Virus record (IMG/VR): IMGVR_UViG_2648501841_000011
Location: 1-7,121 of that record
Origin: a virus
Lineage: Duplodnaviria; Heunggongvirae; Uroviricota; Caudoviricetes
Length of the DNA: 7,121 nucleotides
Strand: one strand, 5' to 3'
Shown in pieces: positions 1 to 7,121 of the stretch. The notes under the pieces are model-generated. The model ran no database searches and was not told where the DNA came from. It was given only the letters and a program-made list of their open reading frames with translations. Numbering within the stretch: the stretch's first letter is position 1; every line of letters begins with the position of its first letter. The translations under genes and the position numbers were made by a program.

Positions 1-48
1 AAGCGGGTTAAGTGCGGGTGCGTTGAGGATGCCTGATTCATCAGAGGT

Positions 49-70
49 GGCGAGGGATTTCTCCCTCGCC
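49..70 (-). other. perfect 9-bp stem / 4-nt loop hairpin (GGCGAGGGA-tttc-TCCCTCGCC) just 3' of the hok stop; probable hok mRNA 3' structural element
   Basis: Inverted repeat read directly; a second small palindrome CTGA-ttca-TCAG sits at 33-44. No U-tract follows on the minus strand, so this is not a classical intrinsic terminator; hok mRNAs are known to carry structured 3' ends. Confidence 0.4.
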
Positions 71-77
71 GGGTCTC

Positions 78-233
78 TTACTCCTCAGGTTCGTAAGCTG
101 TGAAGACAGCGACCTCCGTCTGGCCGGTTCGGATTCGTACCTCGCAGAGGTCTTTCCTCGTTACCAGTGCCGTCACTATGACGGTTAAACAGATGACGAT
201 CAGGGCGATTAACATCGCCTTTTGCTGCTTCAT
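78..233 (-). CDS. hok: Hok/Gef-family type I toxin, 51-aa small membrane peptide (MKQQKAMLIALIVICLTVIVTALVTRKDLCEVRIRTGQTEVAVFTAYEPEE)
   Basis: ATG at 231-233 (minus) preceded by AAGGAGAAG SD; N-terminal hydrophobic helix followed by the conserved LVTRKDLCEV...GQTEVAVF core typical of Hok/Gef/RelF peptides; the flanking leader has hok-mRNA-like sequence blocks (GCUUGAGGCU-UCUGCCUC and UAGCCUCUUACGCGCC...AAGGAGAAG). From memory it is closest to HokD/RelF-type sequences, but no relBE genes lie upstream, so a specific paralogue is not assigned. Confidence 0.9.
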   Translation of the reverse strand: MKQQKAMLIALIVICLTVIVTALVTRKDLCEVRIRTGQTEVAVFTAYEPEE

Positions 234-290
234 AGCCTGCTTCTCCTTGCCTTTCGGCGCGTAAGAGGCTAACCTACATGTGTCTAGCAT
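78..290 (-). CDS. mok: mok-like reading frame: 70-codon in-frame N-terminal extension of hok (translational-coupling ORF)
   Basis: ORF track 78..290; ATG at 288-290 lies 57 nt upstream of and in frame with the hok ATG, the arrangement annotated for chromosomal mok/hok pairs. Whether it is translated is inferred, not shown. Confidence 0.45.
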   Translation of the reverse strand: MLDTCRLASYAPKGKEKQAMKQQKAMLIALIVICLTVIVTALVTRKDLCEVRIRTGQTEVAVFTAYEPEE

Positions 291-345
291 GAAATTGGCC
301 TCAGATTAATGTTAGGCGTCTTGCAGGACGCGTAATGTTAACTGG
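282..345 (+). ncRNA. sok: putative Sok-like antisense RNA overlapping the mok start and hok leader (boundaries approximate)
   Basis: Plus-strand promoter-like TTGCCT (247-252), 17-nt spacer, TAACCT (270-275) inside the mok frame, pointing antisense to the hok leader; small hairpin GCGTC-ttgcag-GACGC at 316-331. The position is that expected for Sok in hok/sok loci; ends not determinable from sequence. Confidence 0.3.
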
Positions 346-404
346 GGCTTTTCTCTATCTGCCGTTGGTGTTCATGCCCGAGGCAGATAGCCTCAAGCAC
401 CCGC

Positions 405-440
405 AGCTATTCTACTTAACTTCCCATTACCTCGCCAATA
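405..440 (-). promoter_or_regulatory. putative hok/mok promoter (minus strand): -35 TGGCGA (432-437), 17-nt spacer, -10 TAGAAT (409-414)
   Basis: Sigma70-like hexamers with 17-bp spacing, placed just upstream of the conserved hok-mRNA 5' block that begins near 400-403 on the minus strand. Confidence 0.3.
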
Positions 441-837
441 TGAAATCGGTCAGAAAGACAGACGTCCCATAAGGACAACAACGGAAAAAGAGATTTTGCT
501 TGATGCTATTTACCTCTGCACCATGAAGTTGCGCCAAAATCCCAGTGGTGATAACAGGAATTTGGTTGTTGGTGATTGGGGAAAGAAGTACGTTAGACTG
601 TGGGTTAGTTCATTGACATGATAGTTACCTGCCTTCAATTTCCTAAGCAAGCGATGTAAACGATAATCAATATCAAATGTATTGACAGGTAAAATAATAA
701 CGATGTACCTTTGCTGATAACATATATCAGTCTTAAATCATAATGGAGGTAGATAAAATAACTAAACACACACAACAAATTTTTTATCAGTGACATAGCA
801 TATCTTAAGCATCCTTTAATGCTCATGGGGAGAACGC

Positions 838-1611
838 ATGACTAAACATATGGACATTCATTGTCAAACACGCATATTTAACTCAATTAACCATGACACC
901 AAATATAAAATATGTATTTTTACTCCAAAAAACATTAAAAAAAATAATGCAACTCTTTATATACTTGATGGGAATAGTGCCAACAATTACATTTCTGATA
1001 TTCTGCCTGTTATTGATGCACTACCCAATCCACCAGTGTTAGTTACACTTGGTTATGAATCTTGGAATAACCTTAGCATTCATCGCCGTGCTTACGATTA
1101 TACTCCTGATGGTGAAAATGCTATTGTTGATAACTCTAAACCAGCATGGATCTACTTTACTGGTGGAGGAAGCCAGTCTTTCCGAGAATTATTACTAACT
1201 CAGATCATGCCATGGGTTAGTACTATTGCTCCGAACAGTTCCAGAATCGGTATATGGGGGCACTCGCTAGGTGCTATTTTTGTGCTTGATTGCTTAAAAA
1301 ATAATTCATGCTTTAACTATTATTATATATCTGCACCATCACTTCTATGGCAGAATGAAAGAATCATCAAGATAATTAAAGATGATATATCAGAATCAAA
1401 GCACACTAAAAGTATATGCTTGCTTAACGGAAATCTTAGCCTTGATTACTCCGCATCTTTATATCCTGAAGCCATCAAAGCGGAATCTGTTTTGAGAAAT
1501 ATTTTGACAGAAAAATACAGTAATTTTTCTATTGTACAATTTCCAGAGCTCAATCATCAGGAGACTTTCTCTGCTGCACTCTGGAATAGCATTATTCATT
1601 TCAGCATATAA
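838..1611 (+). CDS. putative esterase, alpha/beta-hydrolase fold, PF00756-like (Fes / IroE / esterase-D type); AT-rich cargo gene
   Basis: 257-aa ORF with GGGGAGA SD 4 nt before the ATG; motifs LYILDGN, YDYTPDG, FTGGGSQSFRELLLTQIMPWV and the nucleophile elbow G-H-S-L-G-A match the siderophore-esterase / esterase-D family layout; no N-terminal signal peptide evident; markedly AT-rich relative to flanking phage DNA. Confidence 0.8.
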   Translation: MTKHMDIHCQTRIFNSINHDTKYKICIFTPKNIKKNNATLYILDGNSANNYISDILPVIDALPNPPVLVTLGYESWNNLSIHRRAYDYTPDGENAIVDNSKPAWIYFTGGGSQSFRELLLTQIMPWVSTIAPNSSRIGIWGHSLGAIFVLDCLKNNSCFNYYYISAPSLLWQNERIIKIIKDDISESKHTKSICLLNGNLSLDYSASLYPEAIKAESVLRNILTEKYSNFSIVQFPELNHQETFSAALWNSIIHFSI

Positions 1612-1962
1612 CAGAAAATATGTAATCACTTTATCAATCTAGCTAACATAACTGATATCAATCCTAATGGGTCTTTGAACATATTAAAAGATAACTTCTC
1701 ATTTGTACATTGTTGTGTTCTTAGACCCATTTCAAAAATACTATTTTTTAGATACTAATAATTACATCCATTTAGCTATCTTCTAAATACTCCTCTCAGT
1801 TTCTTCATTGGAGCTGATTCAACTCCGGCAATGCATACTAGGATCATTTTATAAGCATACAAACAACATCCAGACTGTGAATTATTGCTATTCATTTTCT
1901 ATGTATCTGCTCTTTTCCCATCCACTGAAACACCAGAATCCAAAGGTTTCATGTTATTTTCA

Positions 1963-2376
1963 CTATTCCATCATTACTCCTGTGTAAAATATCAAAACTC
2001 GCTGCATCACTTCACTGTTACGGCACTCACTACAAATTATGTTCAATTGCCTGTCATAGCGGCGTATTTCTCCGTCTGGTAATGACCAGATAAGGTCAGG
2101 ATCAACCACAACCGGTTTCTTCAGTTTTGCCCTCGATAGTTTTTTGCGGGCGTTTTGCCAGTCCTTACGAGCCTGTTCAGATGGGAATAACCCGTAACCA
2201 GAGTTGTATACATCGCCACTGGCAACCAGCTCTCTGGCAAGAACGCTCATCAGATATCTTGTCGCACCTGTCTTGGCTTCCAGTTGCCGTAACGTCTCGC
2301 GCCCACTCCGGCGTACTAGCTCAACAACCTGCCCTTTAATTTTTTCCCGCTCTTCCTGTGTAAATACTTTTGCCAT
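1963..2376 (-). CDS. hypothetical phage protein (137 aa) with HTH-like N-terminal region; last gene of the minus-strand early operon in this window
   Basis: ATG at 2374-2376 (minus) with GGAGG SD 5 nt upstream; the ORF track's TTG start at 2391 is rejected; its SD overlaps the stop of the upstream gene (operon coupling). Function not recognised. Confidence 0.6.
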   Translation of the reverse strand: MAKVFTQEEREKIKGQVVELVRRSGRETLRQLEAKTGATRYLMSVLARELVASGDVYNSGYGLFPSEQARKDWQNARKKLSRAKLKKPVVVDPDLIWSLPDGEIRRYDRQLNIICSECRNSEVMQRVLIFYTGVMME

Positions 2377-2391
2377 AAGCGCCTCCGGCAA

Positions 2392-3257
2392 TCACTTTTC
2401 CGATACAACACGGCGGGAAGAATCAGTAATCTGTCGAACAATATCCCGGTGCTTGTTCAGCTCCCGCAGCGCGGCGCAGACTCGCTCCCACTTCTGAACA
2501 TCACTTTTCGCCCTGCGCAGCGCCAGGTTTGCCCTGCGAAGGGACGGAAAAATCAGCTCATCTGCTTGCGTTTCGGTAAACGATGGCAACGGCTGCACAA
2601 TGTCCGCCACAGTTTCTGTTTTAATTTCTTCCTGTGTTGCGGCTTCCCGGACTGGTAACGCAGCACCTGCTGGCTGAGGAAAGGCCTTACCATCATTTTT
2701 CGTTACCGGCGCGGCTTTCGGATCTGCTGGTAAATTACCCCCCGACATGCAGTAACGAAATTTACCGTTCTGATTAACGCGNNNNNNNNNNCTTTCCGTT
2801 ACCAGCGCGGCTTTCGGCTCTGCTGGTAAATTATCGCCCGGCATGCAGTAACGAAATTTACCGTTCTGATTAACGCGTGCCAGCCGCCCCGTTGCGGTTA
2901 CCACCGCCAGCGTGGAAGCAACCTTGCGAGTACTGACGCCGAACTTACCCGCCAGTTCCTCACACGTTTTAGCACCATCCTGACCGATAAACTCAACCAT
3001 CATGTCTGCGGTAACTTTTGGAGCGACCTCTTCGGTTACCACATCCGGCGCTTCAGGTTGTAGTGCCTGCCCTTCGGTTACCCCGGCTTCACCTTCGACA
3101 GCCAGAAACCAGGTGTGACCCGTTTTATCAACAACGCCATTTTTTTGAGTTCCCACAGTTCGTTAAGAACTTCTTCACGGCTGATATCAAGCCGCGCCGC
3201 CAGTTCAACAGAATTGGCTTTTCCCATCGCTTTCAGTGCATGCAATACAGTTTCCAT
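2392..3257 (-). CDS. phage protein with winged-helix-like N-terminus and an internal 32-aa tandem repeat; reading frame broken by a 1-nt frameshift at an A7 tract (plus-strand T7 at 3140-3146) and containing a 10-N gap (2782-2791)
   Basis: ATG at 3255-3257 (minus) with GAGGT SD encodes [39 protein letters not shown], then reaches the A7 run; that frame stops at 3078-3080 (59 codons), while the other frame (ORF track 2392..3156) continues [18 protein letters not shown]... for 249 codons. One extra A, or a -1 slip, would give about 288 aa. Position directly downstream of the dnaC-like gene. Confidence 0.6.
2686..2877. repeat. 96-bp tandem direct duplication (2 copies) inside the coding sequence; the first 10 nt of copy 2 are masked as N
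   Basis: 2697-2781 and 2793-2877 align at a 96-nt offset with a few mismatches, encoding twice the peptide [12 protein letters not shown](P/S)G(D/G)NLPA(E/D)PKAA(L/P)VT; N run at 2782-2791. Confidence 0.85.
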
Positions 3258-3282
3258 CGAAAATTTACCTCGTCAAAAATTC

Positions 3283-4023
3283 TCACATACCCTGACGTCC
3301 AACGTTTGACCGCCAGCTCTCCCAGTTAAAATTCACCCAACGACCACCATTCATGGTCATACGGTCCATCACCCGATCTCCGAGGAGTGTGCTCATCGCT
3401 GCGTGATTCAGGTTCGTCAGCATTCCGACACTACACATCGAAGCCGTTCTGCGGTCGACTATCTGGTTCAGCGTGACCTGCTCGTTGCGCGTATCCCGCT
3501 GCATGCCAATTTCATCAAGGACCAGAAGGTCAACTCCACAAAGCTCCTGTAAAAATTTTTCCCCGGACTGGCCGTTGTCGTAGCCGTCATGCAACACGCT
3601 CATGACATCGGACACGGTGACGATAATCACGCTTCTCCCCTTCGCCATCAGCCGATTGCCAATCGCTGCTGCCAGGTGATTTTTACCGGTACCAGGTTTA
3701 CCGCTGAACACGAAGTTTGTACATCCGGTCATCAATTCATCGGCAATGGATTTCGCCTGGCTCAGAGCATGGCGCTGACCGTCGTTCTGCACCCGGTAGT
3801 TCCCGAATGAGCACTTCCTGTGAAGCGGCTGGATGCCCGCACGGTTCAGGATTTTTTCAACCCGCACCTGATGATTCAGGCGGTTAATCTCCTCGCTGCG
3901 TTTTCGTCGTTCAGCAAGTTGCCATTCCCGCCACTCCTCCACCGTCCGGTACGGTGGAACCGCCCCCTGTGGTGCAAGTCTGCGAATACGTTCAAGAACC
4001 CCAACTGCCGCAATGTTTTTCAT
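3283..4023 (-). CDS. DnaC-like replicative helicase loader (IstB-like AAA+ ATPase)
   Basis: 246-aa ORF; Walker A GKPGTGKNHLAAAIG and Walker B LLVLDEIG; GGGGG SD upstream of the ATG; immediately follows the replication initiator gene, as in the ydaU-ydaV-type arrangement of Rac-like prophages. Confidence 0.9.
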   Translation of the reverse strand: MKNIAAVGVLERIRRLAPQGAVPPYRTVEEWREWQLAERRKRSEEINRLNHQVRVEKILNRAGIQPLHRKCSFGNYRVQNDGQRHALSQAKSIADELMTGCTNFVFSGKPGTGKNHLAAAIGNRLMAKGRSVIIVTVSDVMSVLHDGYDNGQSGEKFLQELCGVDLLVLDEIGMQRDTRNEQVTLNQIVDRRTASMCSVGMLTNLNHAAMSTLLGDRVMDRMTMNGGRWVNFNWESWRSNVGRQGM

Positions 4024-4029
4024 GACACG

Positions 4030-4992
4030 TCACCCCCTGAATCCCGGCGGTATTTCAGTGTCCGGTTCAGAAATGTGATTCACGCAACGCTGCGCGGGCG
4101 AACGCCCCAGGCGGATAACCAGTTCATCCCATTTTTCCCGGAGTTTTGCCGGACTCATGATGTTTTTTACCCAGAACGAATCCCGCTGGAGACGCCCAAA
4201 CATTTCACAAATTTGTCTGTGAGTTCTGCCATCCAGCATCCGCATTGTCCGCACGTCATTGGCCCATGCAGTCCAGTTGGGTTCTTTCGGTCTCGTGATC
4301 TCGCCATCATCGCTGGCCGCCTGCTCGTAAAGACTCACGATTCGTCCCCAGATCCACTGTGCGCACACCAAATCTTCCTGACTTCCCCACTGGCGTTTTT
4401 TCGCACTGAACACAACCGCGTCAGGGTGTCGGGTTAAAAAATTCTGTTCAGCCGTCTGCGGGTCCGGTTGCGAAGCGTCCGGACAAGAAGATCTTTTATC
4501 TGACGGATCAGGTTTTAATACTGACGGATCGGGGTCAATCATCGCCCCCCTAATCGGCAGTTTGTTATCAACAGTTGATCCATCAAAATTTGACGGGTCA
4601 ACCGTTGAGGGGGCAATATTTGACGGGTCAACTGTTAACGGGTCATTTTTTGCCGGGCTAATTTTTCTTTTCGGTTTATATGACTCACGCGCCGCCGCAG
4701 CAGCTGCTTCGAGTTTTTCCACATTAAGCCGATAGATATTGCTTACATTACGCCCACCGACCTTACGCTCTTCCTTCGTCAGCCAGCCCTCTTTCGCCAG
4801 TTCTGCAATAGCCGATTTCACTGTGGATTCACTTCTTGCACCGATCTGACGCCGGATAGTTTCAATGGCAGGCCATGACACGCCCTCGTCATTGCTGTAG
4901 TCTGCAAGACGGGCCATAACCGCCACCCTGGATAAGATCATGCCGGTGAAGGCGCACCCTTCCCAGACAAGACCATGAAGCTTGCTGCTCAT
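4030..4992 (-). CDS. phage replication initiation protein (lambda O-like role): N-terminal winged-helix DNA-binding domain, low-complexity linker, C-terminal domain
   Basis: ATG at 4990-4992 (minus) with GGGGG SD; the ORF track's GTG at 5007 is rejected. N-terminus ...LSRVAVMARLADYSNDEGVSWPAIETIRRQIGARSESTVKSAIAELAKEGWL is typical of HTH-type replication initiators; gene order cro-like / cII-like / initiator / DnaC-like. Confidence 0.85.
   Translation of the reverse strand: MSSKLHGLVWEGCAFTGMILSRVAVMARLADYSNDEGVSWPAIETIRRQIGARSESTVKSAIAELAKEGWLTKEERKVGGRNVSNIYRLNVEKLEAAAAAARESYKPKRKISPAKNDPLTVDPSNIAPSTVDPSNFDGSTVDNKLPIRGAMIDPDPSVLKPDPSDKRSSCPDASQPDPQTAEQNFLTRHPDAVVFSAKKRQWGSQEDLVCAQWIWGRIVSLYEQAASDDGEITRPKEPNWTAWANDVRTMRMLDGRTHRQICEMFGRLQRDSFWVKNIMSPAKLREKWDELVIRLGRSPAQRCVNHISEPDTEIPPGFRG
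4495..4690. repeat. putative origin of replication: iteron-like repeats inside the initiator gene (TGACGG(A/G)TC x4; palindromic TCAACnGTTGA-type sites x3 at exact 30-bp spacing) next to an AT-rich stretch
   Basis: TGACGGATC at 4501 and 4522, TGACGGGTC at 4591 and 4621; TCAACAGTTGA 4568-4578, TCAACCGTTGA 4598-4608, TCAACTGTTAA 4628-4638; T-rich run 4644-4680. They encode the repetitive linker (VDPSN...STVDPSN...) of the initiator, like lambda ori lying within gene O. Confidence 0.45.
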
Positions 4993-5014
4993 AAAACCCC
5001 CGAACACCGTGCTT

Positions 5015-5440
5015 TTAGTGCATCACCACAGCATTCCCTGCCGGGCCGCCGCGATTCATCTGGTCATACAAAACAACCGCTGACGCAACAAAATCATCGA
5101 CATCCTTCACCAGCCGATCCCTCCGTTCGACGATCTCACGGTAATATTCAGAACTGTGGCTGCGCATACGGGCCACCAGCAAAGGCGGCATCGCCTTTTC
5201 GATCGCCGGTAACAGAGCCTGCATTTTTTCAACAGCATCAGGGGTGTCTTTATCCAGCCAACGGAAAATTTTCTGGGTATTACGGGCCAGGGCTTCCGGA
5301 TGGCTGTCGTCATACAGTTCCGGGAACGTCATTCCCAGCTCGAAATACGCTTTGGTAATTTTCGCAGCCGGTACTTTTTCGCCGTCCGGATGCGCCCAGA
5401 CATTCATCGCCATGCGGATGTGTTCATGCTTGATTTTCAT
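5015..5440 (-). CDS. ydaT: YdaT-like protein (reported from memory as a CII-like regulator partner of YdaS in Rac / CP-933P-type prophages)
   Basis: 141-aa ORF beginning MKIKHEHI...; its ATG overlaps the stop of the upstream cro-like gene (ATGA overlap at 5437-5440); position second in the early-right operon. Family assignment by recollection of YdaT sequences, not by search. Confidence 0.7.
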   Translation of the reverse strand: MKIKHEHIRMAMNVWAHPDGEKVPAAKITKAYFELGMTFPELYDDSHPEALARNTQKIFRWLDKDTPDAVEKMQALLPAIEKAMPPLLVARMRSHSSEYYREIVERRDRLVKDVDDFVASAVVLYDQMNRGGPAGNAVVMH

Positions 5441-5739
5441 GAATCAACTCCATCAGATAAGCATGCACTACAATCACCTTCAGCATGAACTACATGTGTT
5501 TGCCCCAAACGAATGCCGCTCGCATACTCAGGCCAAATAAGCTCCCAATCATGGGGTCGTAGCTCCGCCCTACTTACTTGGCCTTCCGTCGCAGATTCGA
5601 TCATAAGGGCGCGGGTTGGAGATATAGCTGTTCGTCCAGACGCCATTTGCGATAAGTAAGATGGCGATACACCAAGTCTGGCCGCGAATTTCTTAGCATC
5701 ACCAACCCTTAATGATTTAATAAACTCTTTTAATGTCAT
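5437..5739 (-). CDS. ydaS: Cro-like HTH regulator of the YdaS family
   Basis: 100-aa ORF with GAGGAAGG SD; HTH segment FAARLGVSPSYLSQMASGRTAISPTRALMIESATEGQVSRAELRPHDW matches the YdaS-type signature (LGVS...G.R.I...RA..IE.AT.G.V.R.ELRP.DW); divergent from the repressor gene. Confidence 0.85.
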   Translation of the reverse strand: MTLKEFIKSLRVGDAKKFAARLGVSPSYLSQMASGRTAISPTRALMIESATEGQVSRAELRPHDWELIWPEYASGIRLGQTHVVHAEGDCSACLSDGVDS

Positions 5740-5836
5740 ACCTTCCTCGGTTTAGTGTTTTTTTGCGAGTTTAGTGTTTAATAAACCATTAAGTCAAGTA
5801 TTTGCTTGTTTAGTGATTACTAAAGATAATTACCAC
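5740..5836. promoter_or_regulatory. divergent promoter/operator region between cro-like and cI-like genes with three GTTTAGTG(T/A)TT repeats
   Basis: GTTTAGTGTTT at 5750-5760 and 5769-5779, GTTTAGTGATT at 5808-5818 (the last within the palindrome TTTAGT-gatt-ACTAAA, 5809-5824); plus-strand TTGCTT (5802-5807), 17-nt spacer, GATAAT (5825-5830) ends 6 nt before the paaR2 ATG. Confidence 0.6.
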
Positions 5837-6208
5837 ATGCAAAAAAAAGAAATTCGCCGTTTACGTCTCAAGGAGTGGTTTAAAGATAAAACTCTGCCAC
5901 CCAAAGAGAAGAGCTACCTATCTCAACTAATGAGTGGGAGAGCCTCGTTTGGAGAAAAGGCTGCCAGAAGAATAGAGCAAACATACGGGATGCCGGAAGG
6001 GTATCTGGATGCGGAATACGCAGAACAACCGGGGGGTTCTCCACCACATGCAGGGTTAACGTCTAATCAACTGGAATTATTGCAGATTTTTTCAGCCTTC
6101 CCTGAGGATGAGCAACGCCAGATAATCAGCGAGTTAAAGCAGAAAAAAGAATCAATGGAAGATCTCATAGCGAGATGGATTGCGGCGCAAAAATGCCGCC
6201 GCGCCTGA
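5837..6208 (+). CDS. paaR2: PaaR2-like HTH transcriptional regulator in the CI-repressor position; first gene of the paaR2-paaA2-parE2 module
   Basis: 123 codons from ATG 5837; N-terminal CI/Cro-type HTH (EKSYLSQLMSGRASFGEKAARRIEQTYGMPEGYLD); the ORF track's GTG start at 5774 lies inside an operator repeat and is rejected; the -10 element abuts the ATG, suggesting a leaderless transcript. Confidence 0.8.
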   Translation: MQKKEIRRLRLKEWFKDKTLPPKEKSYLSQLMSGRASFGEKAARRIEQTYGMPEGYLDAEYAEQPGGSPPHAGLTSNQLELLQIFSAFPEDEQRQIISELKQKKESMEDLIARWIAAQKCRRA

Positions 6209-6228
6209 GTTATAAAACCGGAGGAAAC

Positions 6229-6420
6229 ATGAATAGAGCCCTTTCACCAATGGTTTCTGAATTTGAAACCATTGAACAAGAAAACAGTTACAACGAATGG
6301 CTGCGTGCGAAAGTAGCAACGAGCCTTGCAGATCCGCGCCCAGCAATTCCCCATGACGAAGTTGAGCGCAGAATGGCAGAACGCTTTGCTAAGATGCGCA
6401 AGGAACGGAGCAAGCAGTAA
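6229..6420 (+). CDS. paaA2: PaaA2 antitoxin (63 aa), partner of ParE2
   Basis: ATG at 6229 with GGAGG SD 5 nt upstream; peptide MNRALSPMVSEFETIEQENSYNEWLRAKV... recognised from memory as PaaA2; its stop (6418-6420) is 1 nt from the parE2 ATG. The ORF track's upstream ATG at 6175 lies inside paaR2 and is rejected. Confidence 0.8.
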   Translation: MNRALSPMVSEFETIEQENSYNEWLRAKVATSLADPRPAIPHDEVERRMAERFAKMRKERSKQ

Positions 6421-6421
6421 A

Positions 6422-6700
6422 ATGTTACCCGTGTTATGGCTTGAAAGCGCAGATACCGACCTAGATGATATAACTAGTTATATTGCTCGTTTCGACATAG
6501 ATGCGGCTGAACGCTTATGACAGCGATTAAGGGGTTGTGTGCTGCCGTTATCCGAACATCCGTATTTATACCCACCAAGCGACAGAGTACCTGGCTTGCG
6601 TGAGATTGTAGCCCACCCTAACTATATAATTCTATACCGCGTAACAACATCAAGCGTTGAAGTAGTAAACGTGATCCACGCAAGACGCCAGTTTCCCTAA
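6422..6700 (+). pseudogene. parE2: parE2 (ParE/RelE-superfamily toxin) interrupted by an in-frame TGA at codon 33 (6518-6520)
   Basis: ATG 6422; N-terminal 32 codons MLPVLWLESADTDLDDITSYIARFDIDAAERL, then TGA; the same frame continues without a stop as QRLRGCVLPLSEHPYLYPPSDRVPGLREIVAHPNYIILYRVTTSSVEVVNVIHARRQFP to TAA at 6698-6700. Both halves have ParE-like character; 279 nt in total would give a 92-aa toxin if the TGA were a sense codon (TGG is one transition away). Confidence 0.7.
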
Positions 6701-6718
6701 CTTTCACTACCAATAGAA

Positions 6719-6765
6719 ACATAACAACCGCAACGACTTTATCAAAAGCGTTGTGTTTGTTATGT
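6719..6765. other. long inverted repeat / hairpin downstream of parE2 (ACATAACAA ... TTGTTATGT arms with nested CAACG/CGTTG)
   Basis: Perfect 9-bp arms at 6719-6727 and 6757-6765 with an internal sub-palindrome; begins about 19 nt after the parE2 stop; no clear U-tract, so terminator function is uncertain. Confidence 0.4.
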
Positions 6766-6771
6766 CCCGCG

Positions 6772-6812
6772 GTTTAGTTTTTACTTGACTTAAGTTTAAT
6801 GTTTATTAAACT
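6772..6812 (+). promoter_or_regulatory. putative rightward (PL-like) promoter with a fourth operator-like motif: GTTTAGTTTTT (6772-6782), -35 TTGACT (6784-6789), -10-like TAAACT about 16-17 nt downstream
   Basis: One-mismatch copy of the intergenic operator motif immediately upstream of, and overlapping, a sigma70-like hexamer pair on the plus strand. Confidence 0.35.
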
Positions 6813-7121
6813 AAAAATACCAACCCACCCCGCCCCACAGAACGCAGGGAAATACTTCGAGTTACCCGGCAGTGGTCAGGGGTTAAGTAGCCAGCCCGAG
6901 GCGTATGAACATGACGGCAGGGTTCAACTTTAATAACTATGCAGCAGGTTTTTGTTCCGCTACCCCGGCGTTAAGGGGAAACAGAGGGTTTCTCAGTGGG
7001 CGAAGTCAAACATCAGAATGGAAGGCATCCCGGGATCGGCAAAGAAGCAGCAATGGCGCTTTATATTGACATCAGCGCCATTGCAGGACAGGTAAGAGTT
7101 ATCAGAGCGGTAACTAAGCGG

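Follow-up and report, generated by a model that had tools for sequence, protein, structure and literature searches.

A probable lambda-like replication origin inside the initiator gene of a CP-933P/Sp12-type cryptic prophage

Does the initiator gene of a cryptic prophage carry the origin from which its own product would start replication, or do the short repeats in its coding sequence serve another purpose? The question arises from a 7,121-nucleotide stretch of caudoviral DNA (IMG/VR record IMGVR_UViG_2648501841_000011, positions 1 to 7,121; hereafter the window), which carries the early-right part of a cryptic lambdoid prophage (CP-933P/Sp12 type, E. coli O157:H7). A first-pass annotation, made from the sequence alone, had pointed to an iteron array within the gene for the replication initiator. 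Our computational follow-up indicates that positions 4489-4657, in the part of this gene that encodes the linker between the two domains of the initiator, are very probably the replication origin of the element, although the repeats are organized differently from what was first proposed.

Both motifs described at the outset are present. TGACGGRTC occurs on the plus strand at 4501, 4522, 4591, and 4621, and TCAACNGTTRA occurs at 4568, 4598, and 4628 with an exact spacing of 30 base pairs (bp); neither is found elsewhere in the window (expected occurrences 0.05 and 0.03, respectively), and none of 200 dinucleotide-preserving shuffles matched the observed counts. While the 30-bp spacing of the palindromes stands, tandem repeat analysis shows that the basic unit is 15 bp: Tandem Repeats Finder reports an array at 4568-4645 with a period of 15 (5.2 copies) or 30 (2.3 copies), the sole sizeable tandem array in the window, where the only other tandem repeat noted spans 4133-4153 (11 bp, 1.9 copies). 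A repeat search returned five copies that lie in register every 15 bp between 4568 and 4657, which we read as six contiguous units, each consisting of a short G/C run (S3-4) and an 11-bp dyad, TCAA-N3-TTGA. The dyad or a one-mismatch version of it is found in five of the six units; the degenerate unit is the first in gene sense (4643-4657). The encoded pentapeptides are PAKND, PLTVD, PSNIA, PSTVD, PSNFD, and GSTVD. The four TGACGGRTC copies, initially taken as one element, separate into two kinds: those at 4591 and 4621 (TGACGGGTC) are junctions between adjacent units (…TTGAC-CCG-TCAA…), whereas those at 4501 and 4522 (TGACGGATC) are distinct boxes containing GATC that recur throughout the family.

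The position of these repeats in the protein is as the first-pass annotation had it. AlphaFold2, run with 24 homologues, places both the units (amino acids 113-142) and the boxes (amino acids 153-167) inside a disordered linker that separates a winged-helix domain from a helical C-terminal domain. HTH_36 in the N-terminus is the sole Pfam match, and the whole initiator belongs to phrog_391 in PHROGs ('replication initiation O-like'). Lambda O has a homologous C-domain (BLASTP E-value 3e-25 and 34% identity between amino acids 153-300 and O 145-277; hhalign probability 99.6%), while BLASTP and hhalign detected no similarity between the N-domain and the N-domain of lambda O. A Foldseek search of the model against the PDB returned only generic winged helices of the MarR, PadR, and ArsR types, with E-values above 1e-3, and no initiator-specific match. 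The only match in a PDB sequence search is that of the last ~20 residues (amino acids 300-320, 4033-4095 on the minus strand, …ISEPDTEIPPGFRG) to the C-terminus of DnaT, a weak hit (E-value about 0.01) to three PDB entries. This DnaT-like tail probably explains why relatives are annotated as 'primosomal protein I', and it is a hint that the two proteins have a short motif for contacts with DnaB/DnaC in common. Alternative tails (…GWEDVL and …AWENTL) are found in relatives of the initiator.

A repeat that lies in frame, has a period divisible by three, encodes a disordered linker, and varies in copy number could be a pure protein-level feature, namely a low-complexity pentapeptide linker of the DPSxV type that has grown by replication slippage and whose DNA repeats do nothing by themselves. 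Among relatives, the first unit is indeed 93, 108, 123, or 138 nucleotides away from the conserved box, in 15-nucleotide steps, and the lengths of E. coli alleles vary by multiples of 5 amino acids. Constraint on the DNA argues against this explanation. We fetched 80 loci of relatives, one per bacterial species and from many enterobacterial genera, and analyzed the 74 usable genes along with the window. In the folded N-domain, the third positions of 27 conserved codons with four- or six-fold degeneracy average 0.41 bits across the 75 loci, so synonymous sites are close to saturation among these loci, whereas the third positions of the linker box GAT-CCG-TCA-GTA reach 1.82, 1.58, 2.0, and 1.82 bits in 74 loci (the motif is absent from one). 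Codon choice in the linker is extreme. Among relatives with the N-domain type of the window, serine is encoded by TCA in 31 of 44 linker codons vs. 18 of 171 elsewhere (p = 6e-15), and valine by GTT in 31 of 37 vs. 33 of 128; in a second type, TCA or TCT accounts for 585 of 709 linker serine codons vs. 383 of 1259 elsewhere, and AAA for 247 of 258 lysine codons.

The peptide also changes where the palindrome does not. Units in Edwardsiella, Erwinia, and Morganella read CCC-CCA-ACG-GTT-GAG, GGG-TTA-ACG-GTT-GAC, and GGG-TCA-AAT-ATT-GAG, with exchanges of proline for glycine through CCC/GGG and further shifts among S/P/L, D/E, N/T, and I/V, and all retain the YYAA-N3-TTGA core and the G/C run. 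Dyad symmetry, moreover, is meaningless for a peptide, and the class of repeat follows the class of DNA-binding domain, as described below. To judge from its codons, the array is a DNA element accommodated by the reading frame and not a selected peptide repeat, and we regard the peptide-linker explanation as highly improbable. In Edwardsiella anguillarum (locus L003, 2846-2983), the 15-bp units are organized in a higher-order 45-bp repeat (CCCCCAAATATTGAC / CCCCCAACGGTTGAG / GGGTTAACGGTTGAC), and runs of the form GAG-GGG…GAC-CCC make 19-bp palindromes (GGGGTYAACGGTTGACCCC), which suggests that the G/C runs belong to the recognized site.

Palindromic arrays may also act as mRNA structures or single-stranded DNA hairpins instead of as duplex binding sites, and the gene-sense strand of 4480-4690 does fold more stably than its shuffles (z-score −4.3), as do those of five of the six relatives folded (−3.1 to −7.5). 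However, the proven duplex iterons of oriλ behave alike (z-score −7.4), so the folding signal is a by-product of dyad-symmetric repeats. Two other repeat classes give z-scores of −0.2 and −4.7, the predicted hairpins differ between loci, and a scan of 4300-5100 found no promoter-like or terminator-like site; a structural role on a single strand thus has a very small probability. A 57-amino-acid open reading frame on the opposite strand (4562-4735, plus) mirrors the linker of the initiator with peptides of the STVDPS and DGSTV types because the DNA units are palindromic, and is most likely not a gene.

If the units are binding sites for the adjacent winged-helix domain, domain and repeat should change together, and they do so across a covariation table of 73 loci (the window, 71 genome loci, and phage phiP27). 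Eight of these loci combine a recognition-helix region of the GA(K/R)S..TV type and an RK.GGR wing with TCA-A..-.TT-GAC units. The remaining 65 combine a GAG.ST(V/I)RT-type helix and an RR.GNRN wing with TCA-(A/G)AA-TCT-GAC units; they include phiP27 and loci of Proteus and Providencia, in which the last codon of the unit departs from GAC, and the inducible Shigella phage SfIV has the same repeat class. Klebsiella phage Kp4866-6 has an intermediate N-domain and TCA-AAA-TTT-GAG units, which form the perfect dyad TCAAA-A-TTTGA. In more distant HTH_36 initiators, the winged-helix domain is directly followed by other dyad-symmetric arrays, among them GGGGCAGGAGCTGCCC in Min27 (L085, 1738-1801; 2.9 copies, period 22-24) and CCCTGTGCC-N-GCACAG in ZF40 (L086, 1722-1820) and S107 (L088, 1719-1826), with 4.4-4.9 copies and a period of 21-24 in these two. 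Min27 is nearly identical to ZF40 and S107 at the N-terminus but not in the recognition-helix region, and its repeat sequence is different too. By sequence, at least four N-domain/repeat classes can thus be told apart, and every class split agrees with the repeats being putative recognition sites of the adjacent domain. The same module is present in isolated temperate phages, e.g., SfIV, SfII, phiNP, and YeP1.

Comparison with lambda, which was analyzed by identical tools as a positive control, extends the match to the layout of the whole gene. Four iterons were recovered at codons 116-145 of lambda O and the AT-rich tract at codons 145-163; in the window, the units occupy codons 113-142 and the GATC-containing, AT-rich core occupies codons 153-167, the counterpart of the lambda AT-rich codons being DPDPSVLKPDPSDKRSS (codons 153-169, window 4486-4536). 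The matching codon positions give the same order of N-domain, repeats, AT-rich DNA, and O-like C-domain. Like oriλ (PMC7466680), the candidate origin is set midway through the gene of its initiator, where tandem repeats with dyad symmetry come first and then, toward the C-domain, a tract that in the window is moderately AT-rich; the C-domains are homologous, and the gene is found downstream of cro and cII analogues and of a PR-type promoter (PMC8630535). Even the flavor of the repeats is similar (CCCTCAA...GAGGG in lambda vs. CCCTCAACGGTTGAC/GGGG in the window). The two origins differ in that the N-domain of the window initiator is HTH_36, in that its units are 15 bp long and contiguous while lambda iterons are 19 bp long and spaced by 20-24 bp, and in that its AT-rich tract, approximately 30 bp from the last unit, is much less AT-rich than that of lambda and carries conserved GATC boxes. 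The partner protein is a DnaC-type ATPase, not lambda P. The lambda arrangement suggested by the first-pass annotation, with ori inside gene O, therefore appears to hold, since C-domain homology, matching codon positions, and DNA-level constraint, along with every other computational test run, favor it. The design is textbook lambda and conceptually adds nothing beyond the lambda paradigm.

The two GATC boxes lie on the C-domain side of the array (window 4495-4536), where in gene sense they form direct repeats that start with GATCCGTCAG and continue into 11-14 mostly A/T bases, with a spacing of 21 bp in the window and 24 bp in the second repeat class. An exact match to the 10-mer GATCCGTCAG was found in 63 of 90 loci, invariably within the linker and on the gene strand, and these loci of ~5.9 kb contain no second site. 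The boxes accompany either class of iteron and also occur next to C-terminal domains that are unrelated to one another. On average across the family, GC content over the 45 bp from box 1 is 0.35 vs. 0.53 for the gene; in the window, 4489-4536 has a GC content of 0.38 vs. 0.52 for the gene, three 40-mers of the initiator gene are jointly the least stable, one of them at 4480-4529, and no GATC cluster is denser than the four sites in 4490-4589. The T-rich stretch noted earlier beside the repeats does exist (4643-4680), but the 42 bp on that N-domain side of the array have a family mean GC content of 0.51, and the value of 0.33 is peculiar to the E. coli allele of the window. We therefore rejected the T-rich flank as the unwinding element, its AT-richness not being conserved in relatives. 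Because family-wide AT-richness, low stability, and the GATC cluster all fall on the C-domain side, the unwinding element is likely, by analogy with lambda, at 4489-4536 (boxes 1 and 2).

GATC-rich unwinding elements are familiar from the 13-mers of oriC and the heptamers of P1 oriR, short direct repeats that each contain a Dam site in the AT-rich part of the origin; the repeat of the window differs in sequence, as it consists of GATCCGTCAG plus 11-14 A/T-rich nucleotides. Since boxes and iteron junctions have the core CCGTCA in common, the boxes may be sites for the initiator that are weak or specialized, or they may be used by a host factor instead. Control by Dam and SeqA through the GATC sites is a conjecture. 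A bolder idea, which we consider doubtful, is that the GATCCGTCAG pair is a distinct origin core element independent of initiator class and common to a large group of prophage origins. It would act as a Dam/SeqA-controlled site of unwinding or helicase loading, or as the site of an unidentified host factor, and with it the cryptic O157 prophage may be able to fire in situ while in the ydaST-on state.

The boxes also sit exactly where relatives switch between unrelated C-domains (lambda-O-like vs. the ITDQAKQVL..HLN type), and could accordingly have been kept, together with the AT-rich stretch, as a mosaic joint at which N-domain/iteron modules recombine with different C-modules. Conserved boundary sequences of this kind are known in lambdoid phages. 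The E. coli alleles P0013 and P0016 lack exactly 7 amino acids (21 bp) relative to the window (4501-4530); this is one box repeat, the spacing of the two TGACGGATC boxes, and looks like a deletion between two direct repeats that left one box. A joint does not explain why third codon positions are AT-rich, why GATC is retained, or why the segment matches the AT-rich DNA of lambda in position, and we judge it very unlikely as a replacement for the unwinding role; the two roles are not mutually exclusive.

Binding sites for the initiator need not be where replication starts. In plasmids, iterons also serve control, and the repeats could similarly act mainly in autoregulation, titration or handcuffing, or incompatibility toward related prophages, which occur at up to 4 places per O157 genome, with replication starting elsewhere. 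DNA-level constraint and covariation show behavior like that of a binding site, not initiation as such, and are compatible with this alternative too. We nevertheless find it quite unlikely: the repeats are inside the gene rather than at its promoter, no other comparable array or iteron-like cluster was found in the 7.1-kb window, immunity/promoter region included, and the family-conserved AT-rich, GATC-containing segment follows the array exactly at the position of the lambda unwinding region.

Under the origin reading, and by analogy with lambda, transcription from a PR-type promoter through ydaS and ydaT would express the initiator and the DnaC-type loader and would itself cross the origin. 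The winged-helix N-domain would bind five to six contiguous 15-bp units (TCAA-N3-TTGA with a short G/C run), and the resulting multimeric nucleoprotein complex would destabilize the adjoining, moderately AT-rich, GATC-containing DNA at 4489-4536 with its two GATCCGTCAG repeats. The lambda-O-like C-domain would then recruit host DnaB via the loader. N-domain binding to the units, unwinding at 4489-4536, action of Dam/SeqA on the GATC sites, and continued firing of the origin are inferences.

Several points weigh against an origin here. Literature searches found no paper with experimental binding or origin activity in this initiator family, and the 'Eru' paper on Stx phages makes no mention of iterons or an origin. 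The centre-to-centre spacing of 15 bp is far tighter than the 20-24 bp of lambda, which blurs the stoichiometry of binding. The AT-richness of the segment is only moderate in the allele of the window, about +1 standard deviation within the window and far from its least stable DNA, and the covariation comes down to a few splits deep in the phylogeny, not to many independent events. After mitomycin C, circularization, replication, and packaging were not seen for Sp12, the near-identical prophage that corresponds to CP-933P in Sakai (PMC2669165). In the same study, the integrase and repressor of Sp12 were scored as disrupted, its replication genes were judged functional with a DnaC-type loader, and transcripts of most non-amplified Sakai prophages were unchanged after mitomycin C (PMC2669165). 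Given the disrupted repressor and the unchanged transcription of most non-amplified prophages, the mitomycin C result does not test the origin.

Among other known systems, Stx phages such as 933W (lambda-type O, six iterons) are likewise lambdoid, share the host lineage, and vary in iteron number among relatives (PMC7466680), but they have true lambda-type O N-domains and iterons, and the window element represents another specificity family. Closer in the N-domain are the HTH_36 initiators annotated 'O-like' or 'primosomal protein I' (SfIV, SfII, phiP27, Min27, ZF40, and S107; PHROG 391 and relatives), which belong to the same superfamily and always have a tandem array right after the winged helix. 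Their repeats differ (15-bp TCAAAATCTGAC, or 21-24-bp GGGGCAGGAGCTGCCC and CCCTGTGCC..GCACAG), as do some of their C-domains and partners (a DnaB-like helicase or a primase-helicase); published origin mapping was found in the literature for none of these six initiators. The Rac prophage of K-12 offers a cryptic E. coli element with the order racR, ydaS, ydaT, initiator, and DnaC-like gene, and with an origin, oriJ (ydaU/ydaV), reported to be active (PMC3945230). The N-domain of YdaU is, however, DUF1376, and ydaU has no comparable tandem array, and oriJ was rejected as a direct precedent for these reasons. Nor does the element resemble the origin of an iteron plasmid, with intergenic iterons of 17-22 bp and DnaA boxes: its period is 15 bp, the array lies within a gene, the only DnaA-box-like sites (4565 and 4715) each have one mismatch, and the initiator, a single winged helix joined to a lambda-O-like domain, has no Rep_3 match. 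Our literature searches did not find a description of the combination of an HTH_36 N-domain with an O-like C-domain, contiguous 15-bp dyad units, an invariant pair of GATC boxes, and a DnaC-type partner.

A precise and testable origin would thereby be available for a prophage module carried by about 1,500 of 5,426 complete E. coli genomes, including the O157:H7 element; the 261 bp around the array are found in 1,517 of these genomes at ≥80% coverage. If the reading is true, an intact origin in a prophage unable to excise could over-replicate the neighboring chromosome when the immunity switch flips, and that of the O157:H7 element is bistable (PMC8630535). The classes, at least four with natural variation in unit number, are a ready-made specificity series for how a single winged-helix initiator reads tightly packed 15-bp sites, and the single-box alleles P0013 and P0016 are natural variants that bear on whether one box suffices.

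Table 1 Features of the candidate origin, the initiator, and neighboring genes (window coordinates; aa, amino acids)
Feature	Position	Strand	Residues	Remarks
Iteron array, six contiguous 15-bp units	4568..4657	-	aa 113-142	Gene sense CCG GCA AAA AAT GAC / CCG TTA ACA GTT GAC / CCG TCA AAT ATT GCC / CCC TCA ACG GTT GAC / CCG TCA AAT TTT GAT / GGA TCA ACT GTT GAT
Spacer, array to box 1	4537..4567	-	aa 143-152	NKLPIRGAMI; holds C6/G6 run
Box 1	4519..4536	-		Gene sense GAC CCC GAT CCG TCA GTA; plus strand TACTGACGGATCGGGGTC; holds GATC
AT-rich segment with box 2	4489..4518	-		Gene sense GAT CCG TCA GAT AAA AGA TCT; two more GATC
T-rich flank (A-rich in gene sense), N-domain side	4643..4680	-		Encodes Lys-rich start of linker; GC about 0.38
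Initiator gene	4030-4992	-	320 aa	Annotated 'helix-turn-helix domain-containing protein'
N-terminal winged-helix domain	4678..4992	-	aa 1-105	Pfam HTH_36; predicted local distance difference test (pLDDT) 75-90; presumed iteron-binding domain
Disordered linker			aa 109-173	AlphaFold2 pLDDT below 50
C-terminal helical domain	4102..4461	-	aa 178-297	Homologous to lambda O C-domain
Disordered C-terminal tail and stop codon	4030..4101	-	aa 298-320	
DnaC-type helicase-loader gene	3283..4023	-		Directly downstream of initiator gene; presumed initiator partner
ydaS (Cro-like), ydaT (CII-like)	5015..5739	-		Upstream of initiator gene, same strand
paaR2-paaA2-parE2		+		

The gene neighborhood is that of a lambdoid early-right region, with ydaS, ydaT, and the initiator gene in this order on one strand, so that the candidate origin lies downstream of the cro and cII analogues as in lambda. 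The initiator starts with an ATG at 4992 that is common to all homologues, and many O157:H7 chromosomes carry its gene (4030-5007) with 100% identity. The loader is an AAA+ ATPase of the DnaC/IstB type rather than the lambda P type, and both genes are intact in the window; the minus strand also encodes DUF1627 and DUF977 genes. Jurenas et al. characterized the immunity region, including its promoters, and called the gene after ydaT 'a homolog of the o gene', without addressing an origin (PMC8630535). No complete E. coli genome matches the whole window at ≥80% coverage because its left third is a different mosaic.

Outside the replication module, parE2 (6422-6700, plus) contains a premature stop codon at 6518-6520 (Trp33, TGG to TGA) relative to the intact gene of O157:H7 strain PV15-279, so this toxin-antitoxin module seems to have lost its toxin activity in the source of the window; the open reading frame of the PaaA2 antitoxin is intact, and the PaaR2-like open reading frame matches the expected families. 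A run of 10 N at 2782-2791 inside the DUF1627 gene (2392-3156, minus), with near-duplicate coding sequence on both sides, probably marks a gap in the assembly at an internal tandem duplication. DNA stability in the window is lowest in a very AT-rich block at ~600-1960, which holds a gene (838-1611, plus) for an alpha/beta-hydrolase or esterase-like product (weak Pfam Esterase match) where the O157:H7 reference has a DUF551 gene. Near the left end, an open reading frame at 78-233 (minus; MKQQKAMLIALIVICLTVIV…) encodes a type I toxin of the hokD/relF type, the counterpart of which in a related O157 prophage is annotated hokD.

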